From positions 1-39,603 of the IMG/VR virus record IMGVR_UViG_2778261067_000006: DNA of 39,603 nucleotides; one strand, given 5' to 3'. Below are positions 7,522 through 11,772 of the stretch, in pieces. The DNA is from a virus (taxonomy: Duplodnaviria; Heunggongvirae; Uroviricota; Caudoviricetes). The notes under the pieces were generated by a model. That model was not told where the DNA came from. It did not search any database and saw nothing but the letters and a program-made list of their open reading frames with translations. A program made the translations under genes and the position numbers. Position 1 is the stretch's first letter; each line of letters begins with the position of its first letter.

Positions 7522-7887
7522 TTACTTAACCAATGATGCTGCATATTCGATAAGGTAAAGTTTTGGAGCAAGCCAAATTTTCAGCCAGTCGAAATAATTG
7601 AAGAAAACAACAATAGAAGTAATCGCTATTCCTGATGTAACAAGTAGTGATAAAAGAACAATATCTGCATCATCTCCTTTATTCCATGCAAAAATCATCA
7701 GATAAACACACGCTATAATCACCAATACACAGATAGCCTGAATTCCAGCTGATGATACGGCGTGCCACATCAAAAGCTGATGGATGACATCAGGAATCTG
7801 TGCCTGGCTAAATGAAACAGCCGCGTCTATTCCATTGCTGGCTTTTTGCAGTAGTTCTACGAGAATCTTGTTTGCTTGTTCTTCCAT
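7522..7887 (-). CDS. Small integral membrane protein (121 aa) in the sieB-like position
   Basis: ORF with an AAGGTGA SD; soluble N-terminus followed by two to three hydrophobic helices; flanked on both sides by terminator hairpins. Confidence 0.55.
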   Translation of the reverse strand: MEEQANKILVELLQKASNGIDAAVSFSQAQIPDVIHQLLMWHAVSSAGIQAICVLVIIACVYLMIFAWNKGDDADIVLLSLLVTSGIAITSIVVFFNYFDWLKIWLAPKLYLIEYAASLVK

Positions 7888-7928: not shown

Positions 7929-7959
7929 AAAAAATAAAGGCCACCATCAGGCAGCCTTG
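7929..7959 (-). terminator. Intrinsic terminator after the ral-position gene
   Basis: Minus strand: 9-bp stem (two G-U pairs), loop TGAT, then TATTTTTTA; the loop overlaps the stop codon of the 7947..8198 ORF. Confidence 0.45.
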
Positions 7960-8198
7960 TTGTAAATGTTGCAGGTATCAAGTAAGTAATTAGATGGAGC
8001 GCCATAAATTATGAATTCATCGTTTGTCGGGTCCATCTCCATCTCTTGGCCTATTGCCATTCTTGCGTCAGTGTCATCAGCGGCGAAGCATAAAACAGCC
8101 CACGCACCCATTGTTTTAAAAAGAACTGCAATTGGCTGTGGTTTTACTGAATTTGCGTTAGCGCGAAAATCATAAATCGCACTTTCATGAAATTCCAT
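7947..8198 (-). CDS. Hypothetical early protein in the ral/gene-17 position
   Basis: 83-aa ORF immediately downstream of N; no family recognised with confidence. Confidence 0.45.
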   Translation of the reverse strand: MEFHESAIYDFRANANSVKPQPIAVLFKTMGAWAVLCFAADDTDARMAIGQEMEMDPTNDEFIIYGAPSNYLLDTCNIYNKAA

Positions 8199-8206
8199 AT
8201 ATCACC

Positions 8207-8506
8207 TCAAATAAGTGGTTTGCTGCCTAATTTCATTTTCTGGCGACCAACACAAGTCACACCCATTTCACTGCGTGGCTTGCGGTAGTAAATACGATTC
8301 TGTTTACTCTCGACTTCTTCTGTCTTCTTGCAGCGAAGGCTTCCGAGTGATGCTGCTTTGTCTGCTCTGACGCAACCAGAGAGCTTTAGCGCAATTTTTC
8401 GCGCCAGTCGCTGTTCTTGCATTGCCTGTTCACGTTGATCCTGTCTGCGTGCTCTGCGGCGATTTCTGGCGTTATCGTCAGCCAGATATGTAATGACTAC
8501 TGTCAT
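8207..8506 (-). CDS. N: Antitermination protein N
   Basis: N-terminal arginine-rich motif (NARNRRRARRQDQRE); C-terminus ...YYRKPRSEMGVTCVGRQKMKLGSKPLI parallels lambda N ...WYSKPGERGITCSGRQKIKGKSIPLI; GGAGGT SD. Confidence 0.85.
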   Translation of the reverse strand: MTVVITYLADDNARNRRRARRQDQREQAMQEQRLARKIALKLSGCVRADKAASLGSLRCKKTEEVESKQNRIYYRKPRSEMGVTCVGRQKMKLGSKPLI

Positions 8507-8648
8507 GTTGACCTCCGATGATTGACTTTGGCGATTGGATGGCCGGTGCTGAACTCCGGCTTATTTACAGGCACCTTGTTCTCCCGAAGCTCTCCTGCGC
8601 GCATCAGCCTGCGCATTCATCCAATCCCAAAGCCAACTACTCTTTGGT

Positions 8649-8689
8649 TCCCGCATTTCGGCGGGACAATCCCATCAATGTTAAAGAGC
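8649..8689 (-). promoter_or_regulatory. nutL (boxA GCTCTTTAACA plus boxB hairpin)
   Basis: Minus strand has the boxA consensus followed by the hairpin TCCCGC-CGAAAT-GCGGGA, in the N leader; an almost identical copy lies downstream of cro. Confidence 0.7.
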
Positions 8690-8736
8690 CTGCCAATCTG
8701 TTCCGTTTGGCTTCCAGCGTCCTGCTGATGGCTAAA

Positions 8737-8833
8737 GAATACTGTAGGTATTTTATTGTGTAAATACCCAAGGTATTTATTTTTGATGAAATAATGATAA
8801 ACAAATGAATACAAAGGATATTTATTTTTTCGC
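8737..8833 (-). promoter_or_regulatory. OL operators (three AATAC-N5-GTATT-type sites) with PL
   Basis: Sites at 8737-8753, 8762-8778 and 8817-8833 (the third degenerate). Minus strand has -35 TTTACA, a 17-nt spacer and -10 TATTCT overlapping them. Confidence 0.55.
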
Positions 8834-8908
8834 TGTCTGCTTGTTCAGTGATTTTTATGCGGGATATGTGAAGTGGATCCCGATAGCTATTGCTGCCGGG
8901 ATTATGGG

Positions 8909-9277
8909 TTAGTCAGCGAAGGTTAAGACGAGAATTACCTTAATGATGTCTGCTACAACAGACACGGCCATAGATAAACCAAAGACGATCCAAGCCACAG
9001 TGATGTCTTCACTACCATCGTATAGAGTTCCGTAATCACTGGTGTAAGGCGTAAATGTCGCGCCTTGATACAATAGGTATAAGCTTGATCCATAGAGGAT
9101 AAATGCAGATATCCCTTGTATTGCTATGATCACAAGAATCATGAAACGAGCTGATCTATGCGCCCAAGCCTGGCTTATTTTTTCTGATAGAGATTTCGCA
9201 ATAAAAGCATGCGCTAAGCCGTAAATTGTCGAGATTGCCAACATCGCAAAAAAGCTTGCTATAGCGGTTCCAACCAT
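8909..9277 (-). CDS. Small three-helix integral membrane protein encoded immediately downstream of cI
   Basis: ORF-track ORF 8909..9298 begins at a TTG overlapping the cI stop; an in-frame ATG at 9277 has an AAGGGG SD. Three predicted TM segments; same strand as cI with no terminator between. Confidence 0.55.
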   Translation of the reverse strand: MVGTAIASFFAMLAISTIYGLAHAFIAKSLSEKISQAWAHRSARFMILVIIAIQGISAFILYGSSLYLLYQGATFTPYTSDYGTLYDGSEDITVAWIVFGLSMAVSVVADIIKVILVLTFAD

Positions 9278-9294
9278 AATCGCCCCTTGCGTGA

Positions 9295-10011
9295 TCAAAC
9301 CAGCCTTAGTTTTGTCTCAATTGCAACGCCTATAATCTTGCAGTTTCCATTGATTGGCACGAGAGGCCATGCAGGATTAAGTCCCTTGAGGTATTTATTT
9401 CCGCCGTCGATTATCAGCTTCTTGAATGTTGCTTCGTTAGAGTCAGAAAGTTTTGCTATGACCAAGCTGCCGTTGATCGCCTCCCTTCCGGTATCGAAAA
9501 GAACGAATGTTCCCTCTGGAATGCTTAACCCAACCGGTGCCGTCATTGAATCACCTTCCACTTTAAGCCAAAACGCATTACCTTGAATATGCGCGTCAGA
9601 CTCAAGCCAAACATCTATGTCTTTAATGGTGTATGGTTCGCATGCTTCACACCACGAGCCAGCCTGGATACTGCTTAACACCGGATACCTCTTTCCTGCT
9701 CTGTATTCCCCTGCATACCTTACGTTGGCATCGCTCTTAAGGCTTTCTGCCTGTTCTGCAACCTTGGCAGCAATTGACTGGCTAAAATCAGCAATTGAGA
9801 CTTGCAACAATCGCGCAAAACCAGATGCAACCTCAACGTTTAGCGCGTTTCTGCCATTAAGATAATGCCCTACCGCTCCTTGGGTGATACCCAGTTCATC
9901 AGCGATTGAGTATTGGGTTATTCCCAATTCTTTCTTTTTTGACTCATACAAAGCCTTAAGCCGCTTAGCGTCTTCGAGCTGTTCTGTCGTCAGTGATTTT
10001 TTATTTTCCAT
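9295..10011 (-). CDS. cI: CI repressor (lambda-type, HTH N-terminus and LexA-like autocleavage C-terminus)
   Basis: 238 aa; ...LTTEQLEDAKRLKALYESKKKELGITQ... parallels lambda CI ...[27 protein letters not shown]...; C-terminal ...FWLKVEGDSMTAP... carries the S24 peptidase motif. Confidence 0.9.
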   Translation of the reverse strand: MENKKSLTTEQLEDAKRLKALYESKKKELGITQYSIADELGITQGAVGHYLNGRNALNVEVASGFARLLQVSIADFSQSIAAKVAEQAESLKSDANVRYAGEYRAGKRYPVLSSIQAGSWCEACEPYTIKDIDVWLESDAHIQGNAFWLKVEGDSMTAPVGLSIPEGTFVLFDTGREAINGSLVIAKLSDSNEATFKKLIIDGGNKYLKGLNPAWPLVPINGNCKIIGVAIETKLRLV

Positions 10012-10045
10012 AGCTTAATTCTAATAGCTAAGGTACTTAAACTAA

Positions 10046-10087
10046 AAATACCCTGAGTATTGATTGCTTTGAATACCTGTAGTATTC
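10046..10087 (+). promoter_or_regulatory. OR operators (two clear AATAC-N5-GTATT sites) overlapping PR
   Basis: aAATACcctgaGTATTg (10046-10062) and GAATACctgtaGTATTC (10071-10087); putative PR -35 TTGATT and -10 TATTCT overlap them. Confidence 0.55.
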
Positions 10088-10117
10088 TTTGTTCATGGTT
10101 AATAACGGAGAGTGCAT

Positions 10118-10312
10118 ATGATTCGAATGACACTTGCCGATTACGCCAAAATCCATGGACAGGCTAAAGCAGCCAGTGACTTTGGTGTAATCCAGTGCGC
10201 TATCAGCAAGGCCATTCTGGCAGGCCGTAACATTATGGTTACGGTAAAGCCTGATGGCAGTGTGATTGGAGAGGAAGTTCGTCCTTTCCCAAGCAACAAG
10301 AAAAACAAATAG
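10118..10312 (+). CDS. cro: Cro repressor
   Basis: [24 protein letters not shown]...RPFPSNKK parallels lambda Cro [25 protein letters not shown]...KPFPSNKK; ATG at 10118 with GGAG SD. Confidence 0.85.
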
Positions 10313-10319
10313 TAACACC

Positions 10320-10362
10320 GCTCTTTAACAGTCATGGTCCTTATTCCCGCCGAAATGCGGGA
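10320..10362 (+). promoter_or_regulatory. nutR (boxA GCTCTTTAACA plus boxB hairpin)
   Basis: Same boxA and identical boxB hairpin (TCCCGCCGAAATGCGGGA) as nutL, just downstream of cro. Confidence 0.7.
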
Positions 10363-10420
10363 ATACAACGCGCATCAGTTGGTGCGCATAACTTCTTATT
10401 TGTTAAGGAAATACTTACAT

Positions 10421-10699
10421 ATGCAACTTACAAGTACTCGCAAGAAAGCGAATGCAATTACAAGCAACATCCTAAATCGAATTGCTGTACGTGGTCAGCG
10501 AAAGGTTGCTGATGCATTAGGGATCAATGAATCGCAAATTTCGCGATGGAAAGACAGCTTTATCCCAAAGATGGCCATGCTTCTGGCTGTACTGGAGTGG
10601 GGTGTTGAAGACGAGGAGTTGGCGGAACTGGCTAAGAAAGTAGCCAGAATGCTGACAAAAGAAAAAGCCCCGAAGAACGGCGAATTCTTCGAGGCCTGA
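10421..10699 (+). CDS. cII: CII transcriptional activator
   Basis: ...ESQISRWKDSFIPKMAMLLAVLEWGVEDEE... parallels lambda CII ...KSQISRWKRDWIPKFSMLLAVLEWGVVDDD...; start placed at the internal ATG. Confidence 0.8.
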   Translation: MQLTSTRKKANAITSNILNRIAVRGQRKVADALGINESQISRWKDSFIPKMAMLLAVLEWGVEDEELAELAKKVARMLTKEKAPKNGEFFEA

Positions 10700-10733
10700 T
10701 GTAGAAAGACTGGATCAATCCACAGGAGTAATT

Positions 10734-10898
10734 ATGACAAAACGTCGTAAGAAATACCAGGAAAAAGAAGAGATTCGACACCCTGATTCACCTGAGGGAT
10801 TAGTGGTAGCCGCAGCAAATAACAGGGCGTTCGCAGAGCGCCTTGTTGGTGTTTACAGACTAGCCAAAGCAGGAGTGAAACATGGGCGTCGTTAAGTT
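10734..10898 (+). CDS. Small basic hypothetical protein (54 aa) between cII and the replication initiator
   Basis: Hand-translated; ATG with AGGAG SD 6 nt upstream; its 3' end overlaps the O-like gene start. Confidence 0.35.
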
Positions 10899-11772
10899 AG
10901 CTGATTACAGGCATAACCCTGTACAACATCAGGAGGCATCCAGTATGGGGTATGTCTCTATACACCGCCAGTTTATGGACAGCAGGCTCTATAAGGACTC
11001 TCAGGCAGTACATCTTTGGCTTCACTTAATCCTCAAGGCTAATCACGAATCTACTGTCGTCAATACGGATATCGGTTCGATAACTGTTGATCGCGGTCAG
11101 ATGATAACTGGACGCCCGTCGCTGGTCAGAGAAACATTCATCCCCGACAACAAAGTTCGGAGCTTATTACGGACTTTTGAGTCGAAAGGTATGCTTAATA
11201 TTTGCTCGATGGGGAAGAAATTTAGCCTGTTTACAATCGTTAAATATGACGATTTTCAGGCAAAAAATTGTCCAACGGTTGTCCAACGGTTGTCCAACGC
11301 AAACACCAGTAATGGTGCGGCTCTCAGCGGAGATTGTCCAACGGTTGTCCAACGGTTGTCCATAAACAATAATATAAATAATATCTCTAATACTGACGTA
11401 TTAGAGAGTGCCACAGCAGACAAAAAGTCTGACAAGAAAAAACCTTCCGTCAGCTGTCAGGATGTTGTCGATGCTTACCACGAAATCCTTCCTGAAGCGC
11501 CAAGAATACGCGCACTGAATGACAAGCGTAAAAACCAGATCCGAACGTTCTGGCGCAAAGCCGGAGTGATAACCCGCCAGCTTGACGGGCATGGGTTCAC
11601 GATGCAGGACTGGAGAAATTATTTGAGCTACGTAGGCGAAAATTGTCGATGGATGTTCGAAGAGCGTCCAAACCATCAACGCGGAACTGTCTGGCACAAA
11701 AAGGGATTTGATTTCCTGCTTAACGATAATACCTACCTGAAAGTTCGTGAGGGTGAACACGATGACCGATAA
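10882..11772 (+). CDS. Replication initiator (lambda O / P22 gene 18-like) containing the origin
   Basis: 296 aa; direct repeats inside the gene translate to CPTVVQRLSNA/CPTVVQRLS, as in lambda O where iterons sit inside the gene; lies upstream of the helicase. Confidence 0.7.
   Translation: MGVVKLADYRHNPVQHQEASSMGYVSIHRQFMDSRLYKDSQAVHLWLHLILKANHESTVVNTDIGSITVDRGQMITGRPSLVRETFIPDNKVRSLLRTFESKGMLNICSMGKKFSLFTIVKYDDFQAKNCPTVVQRLSNANTSNGAALSGDCPTVVQRLSINNNINNISNTDVLESATADKKSDKKKPSVSCQDVVDAYHEILPEAPRIRALNDKRKNQIRTFWRKAGVITRQLDGHGFTMQDWRNYLSYVGENCRWMFEERPNHQRGTVWHKKGFDFLLNDNTYLKVREGEHDDR
11268..11410 (+). repeat. Origin of replication: six direct iterons (TTGTCCAACGG) in two clusters followed by an AT-rich tract
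   Basis: Copies at 11268, 11279, 11290, 11334, 11345 and a partial at 11356; then AACAATAATATAAATAATATCTCTAATA. Confidence 0.7.

Follow-up and report, generated by a model that had tools for sequence, protein, structure and literature searches.

Coliphage HK620, said to be described by Clark et al. (J Mol Biol 311:657, 2001), has the known immunity region closest to the one analyzed here. The control sites of its immunity region were annotated in 2001, and the feature list of its GenBank record (AF335538) names N, nutL, pL, OL1, OL2, OL3, tIMM, hkaS, cI, OR3, OR2, pR, OR1, cro, nutR, tR1, pRE, a cII binding site, and cII. The second reference system is phage lambda, whose cI repressor is cleaved at A111-G112 and has S149 and K192 as catalytic residues. 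In the present study, we analyzed a stretch of viral DNA of 39,603 nucleotides (Caudoviricetes; IMG/VR record IMGVR_UViG_2778261067_000006), the whole of which is called the window below. A previous reading of its letters alone (the original prediction) had proposed that positions 8649-10362 hold a complete immunity switch, with five operators of one consensus and paired nut sites. Our results indicate that the region controls lysis and lysogeny in a lambda-like Escherichia coli phage and that it is real, but ordinary and already annotated. More specifically, it combines, with a probability of about 0.92, a bistable switch of the lambda type, which belongs to the HK620 immunity type, with an N/nut module for antitermination. 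A complete lambda-like switch was readable from raw sequence, and it agrees with an annotation that is more than 20 years old.

The immunity region and its relatives

Positions 8200-10720 of the window were compared with phage genomes using megablast. HK620 showed 99.3% DNA identity across 92% of this query, and the same region was found in HK630, HK140, mEpX2, HF4s, vB_EcoP-611R6, HZ41, and some Stx2c phages. A copy of it (coverage of at least 80%) was present in at least 143 of 5426 complete E. coli genomes. Alignments of the window with HK620 and mEpX2 revealed not a single base difference in the left operators (OL), the right operators (OR), nutL, or nutR, and the N-terminal domain of cI was 100% identical to its counterparts in HK140 and HF4s. 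The genes cI, hkaS, cro, and cII as well as PL and PR are also the same as in HK620; the window hence has the cI, cro, and operator sequences that define the HK620 immunity type. After conversion of the coordinates (window = HK620 + 896), four of the five operators, the PL and PR promoters, and the nut sites of the original prediction coincided with OL1, OL2, OR2, OR1, pL, pR, nutL, and nutR of the HK620 record.

The window differs from HK620 in the C-terminal third of N, which is phage 21-like in the former and HK620-like in the latter, in the genes past N, and in OL3, for which the position favored below departs from that of GenBank. A further difference concerns the leader between boxB and the N start codon (8507-8648), which is divergent at 8520-8620 and contains about 33 additional bases. 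Phages sharing this N and boxB have between 107 and 313 nucleotides from boxB to the ATG, a region in which a 'boundary sequence' is annotated in CUS-3. Considered in its entirety, the window represents a P22-like phage or prophage of mosaic structure; over positions 1-25000, it is most closely related to IME10, HZ41, and HK140, with about 97% identity across 40-50% of this query.

The genes that frame the control sites are those of a lambda-type switch, as cI, encoding a helix-turn-helix and S24 peptidase protein, and cro diverge from a short control region, and both proteins are homologous to those of lambda. The cI protein matched lambda cI (PDB 3BDN) over its full length with an E value of 2.9e-52, and its QAG, GDSMT, and FKKL motifs align with A111-G112, S149, and K192 of the lambda protein, i.e., with the determinants of RecA-dependent autocleavage. 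Cro matched the lambda Cro structures in the PDB (E value of 4.7e-19), while the cII protein corresponds to PF05269.

Operators and promoters of the switch

The motif AATAC-N5-GTATT occurs without a mismatch four times in the window, at 8738, 8763, 10047, and 10072, compared with a mean of 0.03 in dinucleotide-preserving shuffles, none of which (0/100) reached four. The original prediction had counted five sites of this form. Their arrangement in two clusters and the non-random nature of the motif stood up to the analysis, but the fifth site (8808-8822, AATACAAAGGATATT) carries one mismatch. The third OR site, which the prediction had missed and considered possibly degenerate, does exist: a sequence with two mismatches (10023-10037, AATAGCTAAGGTACT) is located 24 bp to the left of the site at 10047 and corresponds to OR3 as annotated in HK620. 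Because matches with two mismatches are not enriched window-wide (23 vs 16.8 expected), the two degenerate sites need other support. A weight matrix was therefore trained solely on the four perfect sites and used to scan the entire window, in which 8807-8823 ranked fifth (12.7 bits) and 10022-10038 sixth (9.7 bits), the best background score being 7.9 bits. The possibility that OR3 is a chance match was rejected based on its matrix rank, a spacing of exactly 24 bp, the overlap with the -10 hexamer of PRM, the HK620 annotation, and its conservation in a Serratia phage (see below).

Judging from their sequences, a register of 17 bp with one base pair at the center, as known from lambda, suits the six sites best. 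The consensus of the twelve half-sites is (A/G)-A-A-T-A-C-C-(Y), with positions 2, 4, and 5 being invariant. In OR, three related pseudo-palindromic sites with spacings of 25 and 24 bp extend over PR and PRM, in the manner of the three OR sites of lambda, which are also 24-25 bp apart. In OL, the first two sites lie on the -10 and -35 hexamers of PL, and the third one is at 8807-8823. The half-site differs from that of lambda, (A/G)AATACC replacing TATCACC, and so does the recognition helix of Cro, which reads QCAISKAIL in the window and QSAINKAIH in lambda. According to the 'evolutionary code' for Cro, Gln at helix position H1 goes with A+2, Ala at H3 with A+5, and Lys at H6 with C+6 (PMC6649833). 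In the 17-bp register, the helix Q-C-A-I-S-K and bases A2, A5, and C6 of the half-site satisfy all three pairings, and the operator differences from lambda TATCACC at positions 3 and 4 may go together with the H2 Ser to Cys and H5 Asn to Ser replacements.

The operators could also be followed in more distant relatives. In Serratia phage vB_SspS_OS31 (OS31), the DNA-binding domain of cI is 84% identical to that of the window, and the recognition helix of Cro starts in the same way (QCAISKAI). Of the six best hits of the window-trained matrix in this phage, three were found in OR and three in OL, and the intervals agree with those of the window (25 and 24 bp in the former, 25 and 45 bp in the latter). 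At the DNA level, OS31 has diverged (control regions, about 85%); it has another left operon, and no boxB of the window type is evident. In the lambda and imm21 loci, no matrix score exceeded 8.6 bits, and the maximum in the lambda locus was 5.4 bits, which is consistent with heteroimmunity between lambda and the phage studied here. IME10, N7, and CUS-3 share N and the nut sites with the window, yet they possess a different 651-bp repressor gene and are devoid of AATAC-N5-GTATT-type sites. Therefore, the operators travel with the cI/Cro type of the window. That the sites are instead bound by a regulator other than CI and Cro, or represent a chance repeat, is hardly credible. Nothing except the missing direct binding data speaks for such an explanation, whereas the sites number four against 0.03 expected, every one of them is placed on the promoters that flank cI and cro, and they track the repressor type, being absent from IME10, N7, and CUS-3 and present in OS31.

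As had been predicted, the promoters overlapped by the operators share the -10 hexamer TATTCT, PL having been detected by a promoter scan and PR by reading the sequence (cf. Table 1). PR of OS31 is found at the same place (TTGACA-17-TATTCT). The transcription start of PL is probably near 8729, since the initial transcript bases ATCAGCAGGACGC are common to lambda and phage 21. A candidate PRM, which has no counterpart in the HK620 annotation, could be recognized by comparing lambda (CAT-ACGTTA-AATCTA-TCACC...) with the window (CAT-AGCTTA-ATTCTA-ATAGC...), as the cI ATG, the six bases next to it, the -10 hexamer of PRM, and OR3 are colinear in both; this -10 hexamer is also conserved in OS31. 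By analogy with lambda, PRM transcription would start at the A of the cI ATG (10011) and yield a leaderless cI mRNA.

The third left operator is the point at which our analysis and the annotation of HK620 disagree. In GenBank, OL3 of HK620 corresponds to window positions 8784-8800 (TGATGAAATAATGATAA), while the terminator tIMM corresponds to 8797-8827 and contains the third left site of the original prediction. It is conceivable, though unlikely, that the dyad at 8807-8823 is indeed the tIMM hairpin ending the cI-hkaS transcript and that 8784-8800 is the true OL3, as the HK620 record has it; a moderately U-rich stretch following the dyad on the cI-sense strand would fit this view. However, hardly any hairpin stability is predicted (-1.6 kcal/mol, z of 0.2), and 103 of 200 shuffled sequences folded just as well. 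The GenBank OL3 is unlike the other five operators and scores -21 bits, which is near the window mean and led us to reject it as the true third site. Furthermore, the OS31 homologue of 8807-8823 (GAATCTCTTAGGTATTT) has kept the operator half-site but lost the self-complementarity. In view of the matrix score, the weak fold of tIMM, and the conservation in OS31, 8807-8823 appears more likely to be OL3 than the GenBank site, and the HK620 annotation of OL3/tIMM (AF335538 7888-7931, window 8784-8827) is probably wrong. If so, the label in GenBank and RefSeq, and in the records that copy it, mislabels the third left operator. The site in the original prediction is thus the better operator candidate (12.7 vs -21 bits), but it is not what GenBank calls OL3. 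The dyad could also serve both as an operator and in termination. With OL3 located 45 bp from OL2, if this is true, the geometry of OL-OR looping would be unlike that of lambda; the OL-OR distance (about 1.3 kb) is also shorter than in lambda, where rexA and rexB intervene as well.

The nut sites and their probable cognate N protein

Several boxB hairpins of related phages have been described. The lambda record shows loops GAAAA or GAAGA, and the structure of the phage 21 N-boxB complex (PDB 1NYB) is reportedly that of Cilley and Williamson (2003). The P22 boxB loop is GACAA, and the phage 21 boxB has a hexaloop, CUAACC, that adopts a GNRA-like fold flanked by a C-C pair (PMC12550061). From a paper on the N protein of H-19B, no usable boxB sequence was obtained. 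In the window, the 18-nucleotide boxB sequence TCCCGCCGAAATGCGGGA is present in exactly two copies, while none is expected even with three mismatches allowed. One copy is located in the PL leader and the other past cro, and each follows a boxA (GCTCTTTAAC) after a spacer of 13 or 15 nucleotides, which is the layout of nut sites and bears out the prediction of paired sites with identical boxB. The RNA folds into a 6-bp stem with a 6-nucleotide loop, CGAAAU (-9.7 kcal/mol); hence, it is not a pentaloop of the lambda or P22 type, as had also been noted. A hexaloop boxB is not novel, because phage 21 already has one. Both loops are of the same length and flanked by two pyrimidines, but the loop sequence (C-UAAC-C in phage 21 and C-GAAA-U in the window), the stem, and the arginine-rich motif of N differ, and the phage 21-type combination of CUAACC with the AKSRYKARRAELIAERR motif is not found. 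By analogy with phage 21, we hypothesize that the four bases GAAA of the C-GAAA-U loop might form a true GNRA tetraloop, with C and U as a closing mismatch. A search of Rfam gave no match at gathering thresholds in the whole window and only chance-level matches (E value of at least 1) in 8400-10900; therefore, no curated RNA family covers nut/boxB here.

The N protein is itself a mosaic. Residues 1-64 are 95% identical to the HK620-type N of HK630 and HK140, whereas residues 34-99, which have the stretch 34-64 in common with this first block, show 94% identity to N of phage 21. The same hybrid N occurs in IME10, CUS-3, and HZ41. At position 23, the window protein has Asp, and five relatives have Ala. 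Both functional parts of an N protein are recognizable, namely the N-terminal arginine-rich motif ARNRRRARRQ and a conserved, putatively RNA polymerase-binding C terminus, which aligns with lambda N in the structure of the antitermination complex (PDB 6GOV).

Importantly, the N terminus MTVVITYLADDNARNRRRARRQ(A/D)QREQ and boxB TCCCGCCGAAATGCGGGA are found together in the window, HK620, mEpX2, IME10, N7, and CUS-3, despite the differing repressors and C termini of N in these phages. Phage 21, as read from the DE3 record, has the arginine-rich motif TAKSRYKARRAELIAERR (AKSRYKARRAE at the position of ARNRRRARRQ) and different boxB hairpins with the loop CUAACC, while phage 21 and the window have homologous sequences at boxA (GCTCTTTAAC) and in the PL leader preceding it. 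A swap of only the motif and the hairpin fits a cognate peptide-RNA pair. The distinct N specificity that the original prediction had read from the loop is supported, because boxB is co-inherited with one arginine-rich N terminus and never with that of phage 21. In lambda, Trp18 of N stacks on the boxB loop. In a gapless alignment of the A-x-x-R-R-R-x-R-R pattern, the motif ARNRRRARRQ(A/D)QREQ has Ala at this position.

One may ask whether the two identical hairpins are terminators, RNase III sites, or other processing sites rather than N-binding boxB elements, a view that could draw on the absence of experimental N-boxB data for the HK620 type and on a loop unlike that of every structurally solved boxB. 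We consider it very improbable. Neither hairpin has a U-tract behind it, both follow a perfect boxA core after 13-15 nucleotides, in the two places typical of nut sites (the PL leader ahead of N and just past cro), and the hairpin is strictly co-inherited with one arginine-rich motif across different repressors. In addition, the flanking leader is homologous to that of phage 21 nutL, with only boxB being swapped. A bolder, twofold proposal is that the HK620-type N/boxB pair constitutes a fourth recognition mode, orthogonal to those of lambda, P22, and phage 21, and that OL3 of HK620 is misplaced, the real site being 45 bp from OL2; we regard the chances for and against it as evenly balanced. 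HK620-type CI/operator and N/boxB pairs, which are common in E. coli prophages, could provide extra orthogonal repressor and antiterminator parts.

Proposed working of the switch and neighboring features

Taken together, the sites and homologies suggest the following scheme. CI and Cro dimers would bind the 17-bp operators through the half-site (A/G)AATACC, with the central base pair on the dyad. When bound to OR1/OR2 and OL1/OL2, CI would block PR and PL, the hexamers of which are overlapped, and from OR2, which abuts the weak -35 hexamer of PRM as activation by CI requires, it would activate the leaderless cI-hkaS transcript. Cro or an excess of CI at OR3, which covers the -10 hexamer of PRM, would repress this promoter, probably with the help of OL3 at a distance. 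The prophage would be induced when CI, in which the Ala-Gly site, Ser, and Lys are conserved, cleaves itself under stimulation by RecA. The PL and PR transcripts would each carry boxA and the boxB hairpin to which the arginine-rich N terminus of N is predicted to bind, while the phage 21/lambda-like C-terminal part of N, together with NusA, NusB, NusE, and NusG, would make RNA polymerase resistant to termination.

Several points weigh against this reading of the region. The match of N to the Pfam N_peptide family stays under the family cut-off (19.3 vs 27.9 bits). The distance between OL3 and OL2 is 45 bp, compared with about 20 bp in lambda, and GenBank assigns the dyad in question to a terminator. 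PR, with 8/12 matches, falls just under the threshold of the promoter scanner, and PRM is below it too. The HK620 annotation may itself be purely computational. Finally, the searchable literature yielded no study of HK620-type CI, Cro, or N in which binding, footprints, or transcript ends had been determined, nor any relevant experimental work on HK620 operators, HK620 N/nut, or the mEp and HK immunity groups.

Table 1. Coordinates of the control sites and genes of the immunity region in the window
Feature	Position	Strand	Sequence or product	Support and remarks
N	8207..8506	-	99 residues; arginine-rich motif DDNARNRRRARRQ	phrog_271 'anti-termination protein N-like' (E 3.8e-36)
nutL boxB	8649..8666	-	UCCCGC-CGAAAU-GCGGGA	inside the annotated nutL of HK620
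nutL boxA	8680..8689	-	GCTCTTTAAC	
PL	8736..8764	-	-35 TTTACA (8764..8759), 17-bp spacer, -10 TATTCT (8741..8736)	promoter scan; HK620 pL
OL1	8737..8753		GAATACTGTAGGTATTT	perfect motif, matrix, HK620 annotation; overlaps PL -10
OL2	8762..8778		AAATACCCAAGGTATTT	perfect motif, matrix, HK620 annotation; overlaps PL -35
Probable OL3	8807..8823		GAATACAAAGGATATTT	12.7 bits, rank 5; same spacing in OS31; 45 bp from OL2
hkaS ('cargo gene' of the original prediction)	8909..9277	-	122 residues	HK620 annotation; phrog_6534 (unknown function)
cI	9295..10011	-	238 residues	Pfam HTH_3 and Peptidase_S24
Putative PRM	10018..10046	-	-10 TAGAAT (10023..10018), -35 TTTAGT (10046..10041)	not annotated in HK620
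OR3	10022..10038		TAATAGCTAAGGTACTT	two mismatches, 9.7 bits, HK620 annotation, homologous site in OS31; overlaps PRM -10
OR2	10046..10062		AAATACCCTGAGTATTG	perfect motif, matrix, HK620 annotation; overlaps PR -35, abuts PRM -35
PR	10060..10088	+	TTGATT (10060-10065)-17-TATTCT (10083-10088)	read from sequence; HK620 pR
OR1	10071..10087		GAATACCTGTAGTATTC	perfect motif, matrix, HK620 annotation; overlaps PR -10
cro	10118..10312	+	64 residues; recognition helix QCAISKAIL	PF09048 (E 3.6e-26)
nutR boxA	10319..10329	+	CGCTCTTTAAC	copy of GCTCTTTAAC at 10320-10329
nutR boxB	10345..10362	+	exact duplicate of nutL boxB	stem extendable to 9 bp (AUUCCCGC.../...GCGGGAAU)

The accessory gene hkaS is located immediately downstream of cI, in the place that rexAB occupy in lambda. 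Its product gave no hit in Pfam or PADLOC; based on long hydrophobic stretches, it is probably a membrane protein, and the gene may be a prophage-expressed exclusion or moron gene. Just past the hkaS stop codon, at 8876-8902 (-), there is a stable hairpin (about -14 kcal/mol, z of -2.4), which is followed by no U-tract and is therefore not a canonical intrinsic terminator. A boxA octamer of the lambda type (CGCTCTTA) is present antisense within cI at 9732-9739 (+) as well as in HK620 and mEpX2; no hairpin comes after it, and it is most likely due to chance.

On the right side, nutR boxB is directly followed by a hairpin in the tR1 region (10370-10387, +) with two differences from HK620/mEpX2, by which its stem is extended from 6 to 7 pairs and its loop shortened from 6 to 4 nucleotides. 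The 49-nucleotide stretch, in which a second hairpin is the same in both, folds with -14.7 kcal/mol, compared with -12.1 kcal/mol. At the 3' end of cII, the antisense strand (10665-10697, -) contains a strong hairpin that resembles a terminator and is followed by a U-tract. Its position and orientation are those of the terminator of the lambda OOP antisense RNA, and its Rfam match was at chance level only.

Downstream of N, two small genes of unknown function (7522-7887 and 7947-8198, both on the minus strand; phrog_3054 and phrog_2471) are located where HK620 has hkaQ and the putative exclusion gene hkaP. The 121-residue product of one of them contains hydrophobic stretches and shows a faint match (E value of about 0.06) to the '2TM effector' models of PADLOC. 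Further to the right, at about 11265-11360 (+), the peptide CPTVVQRLS is repeated in the O replication protein. Since the HK620 record places the replication origin here, the repeat presumably reflects iterons within O.

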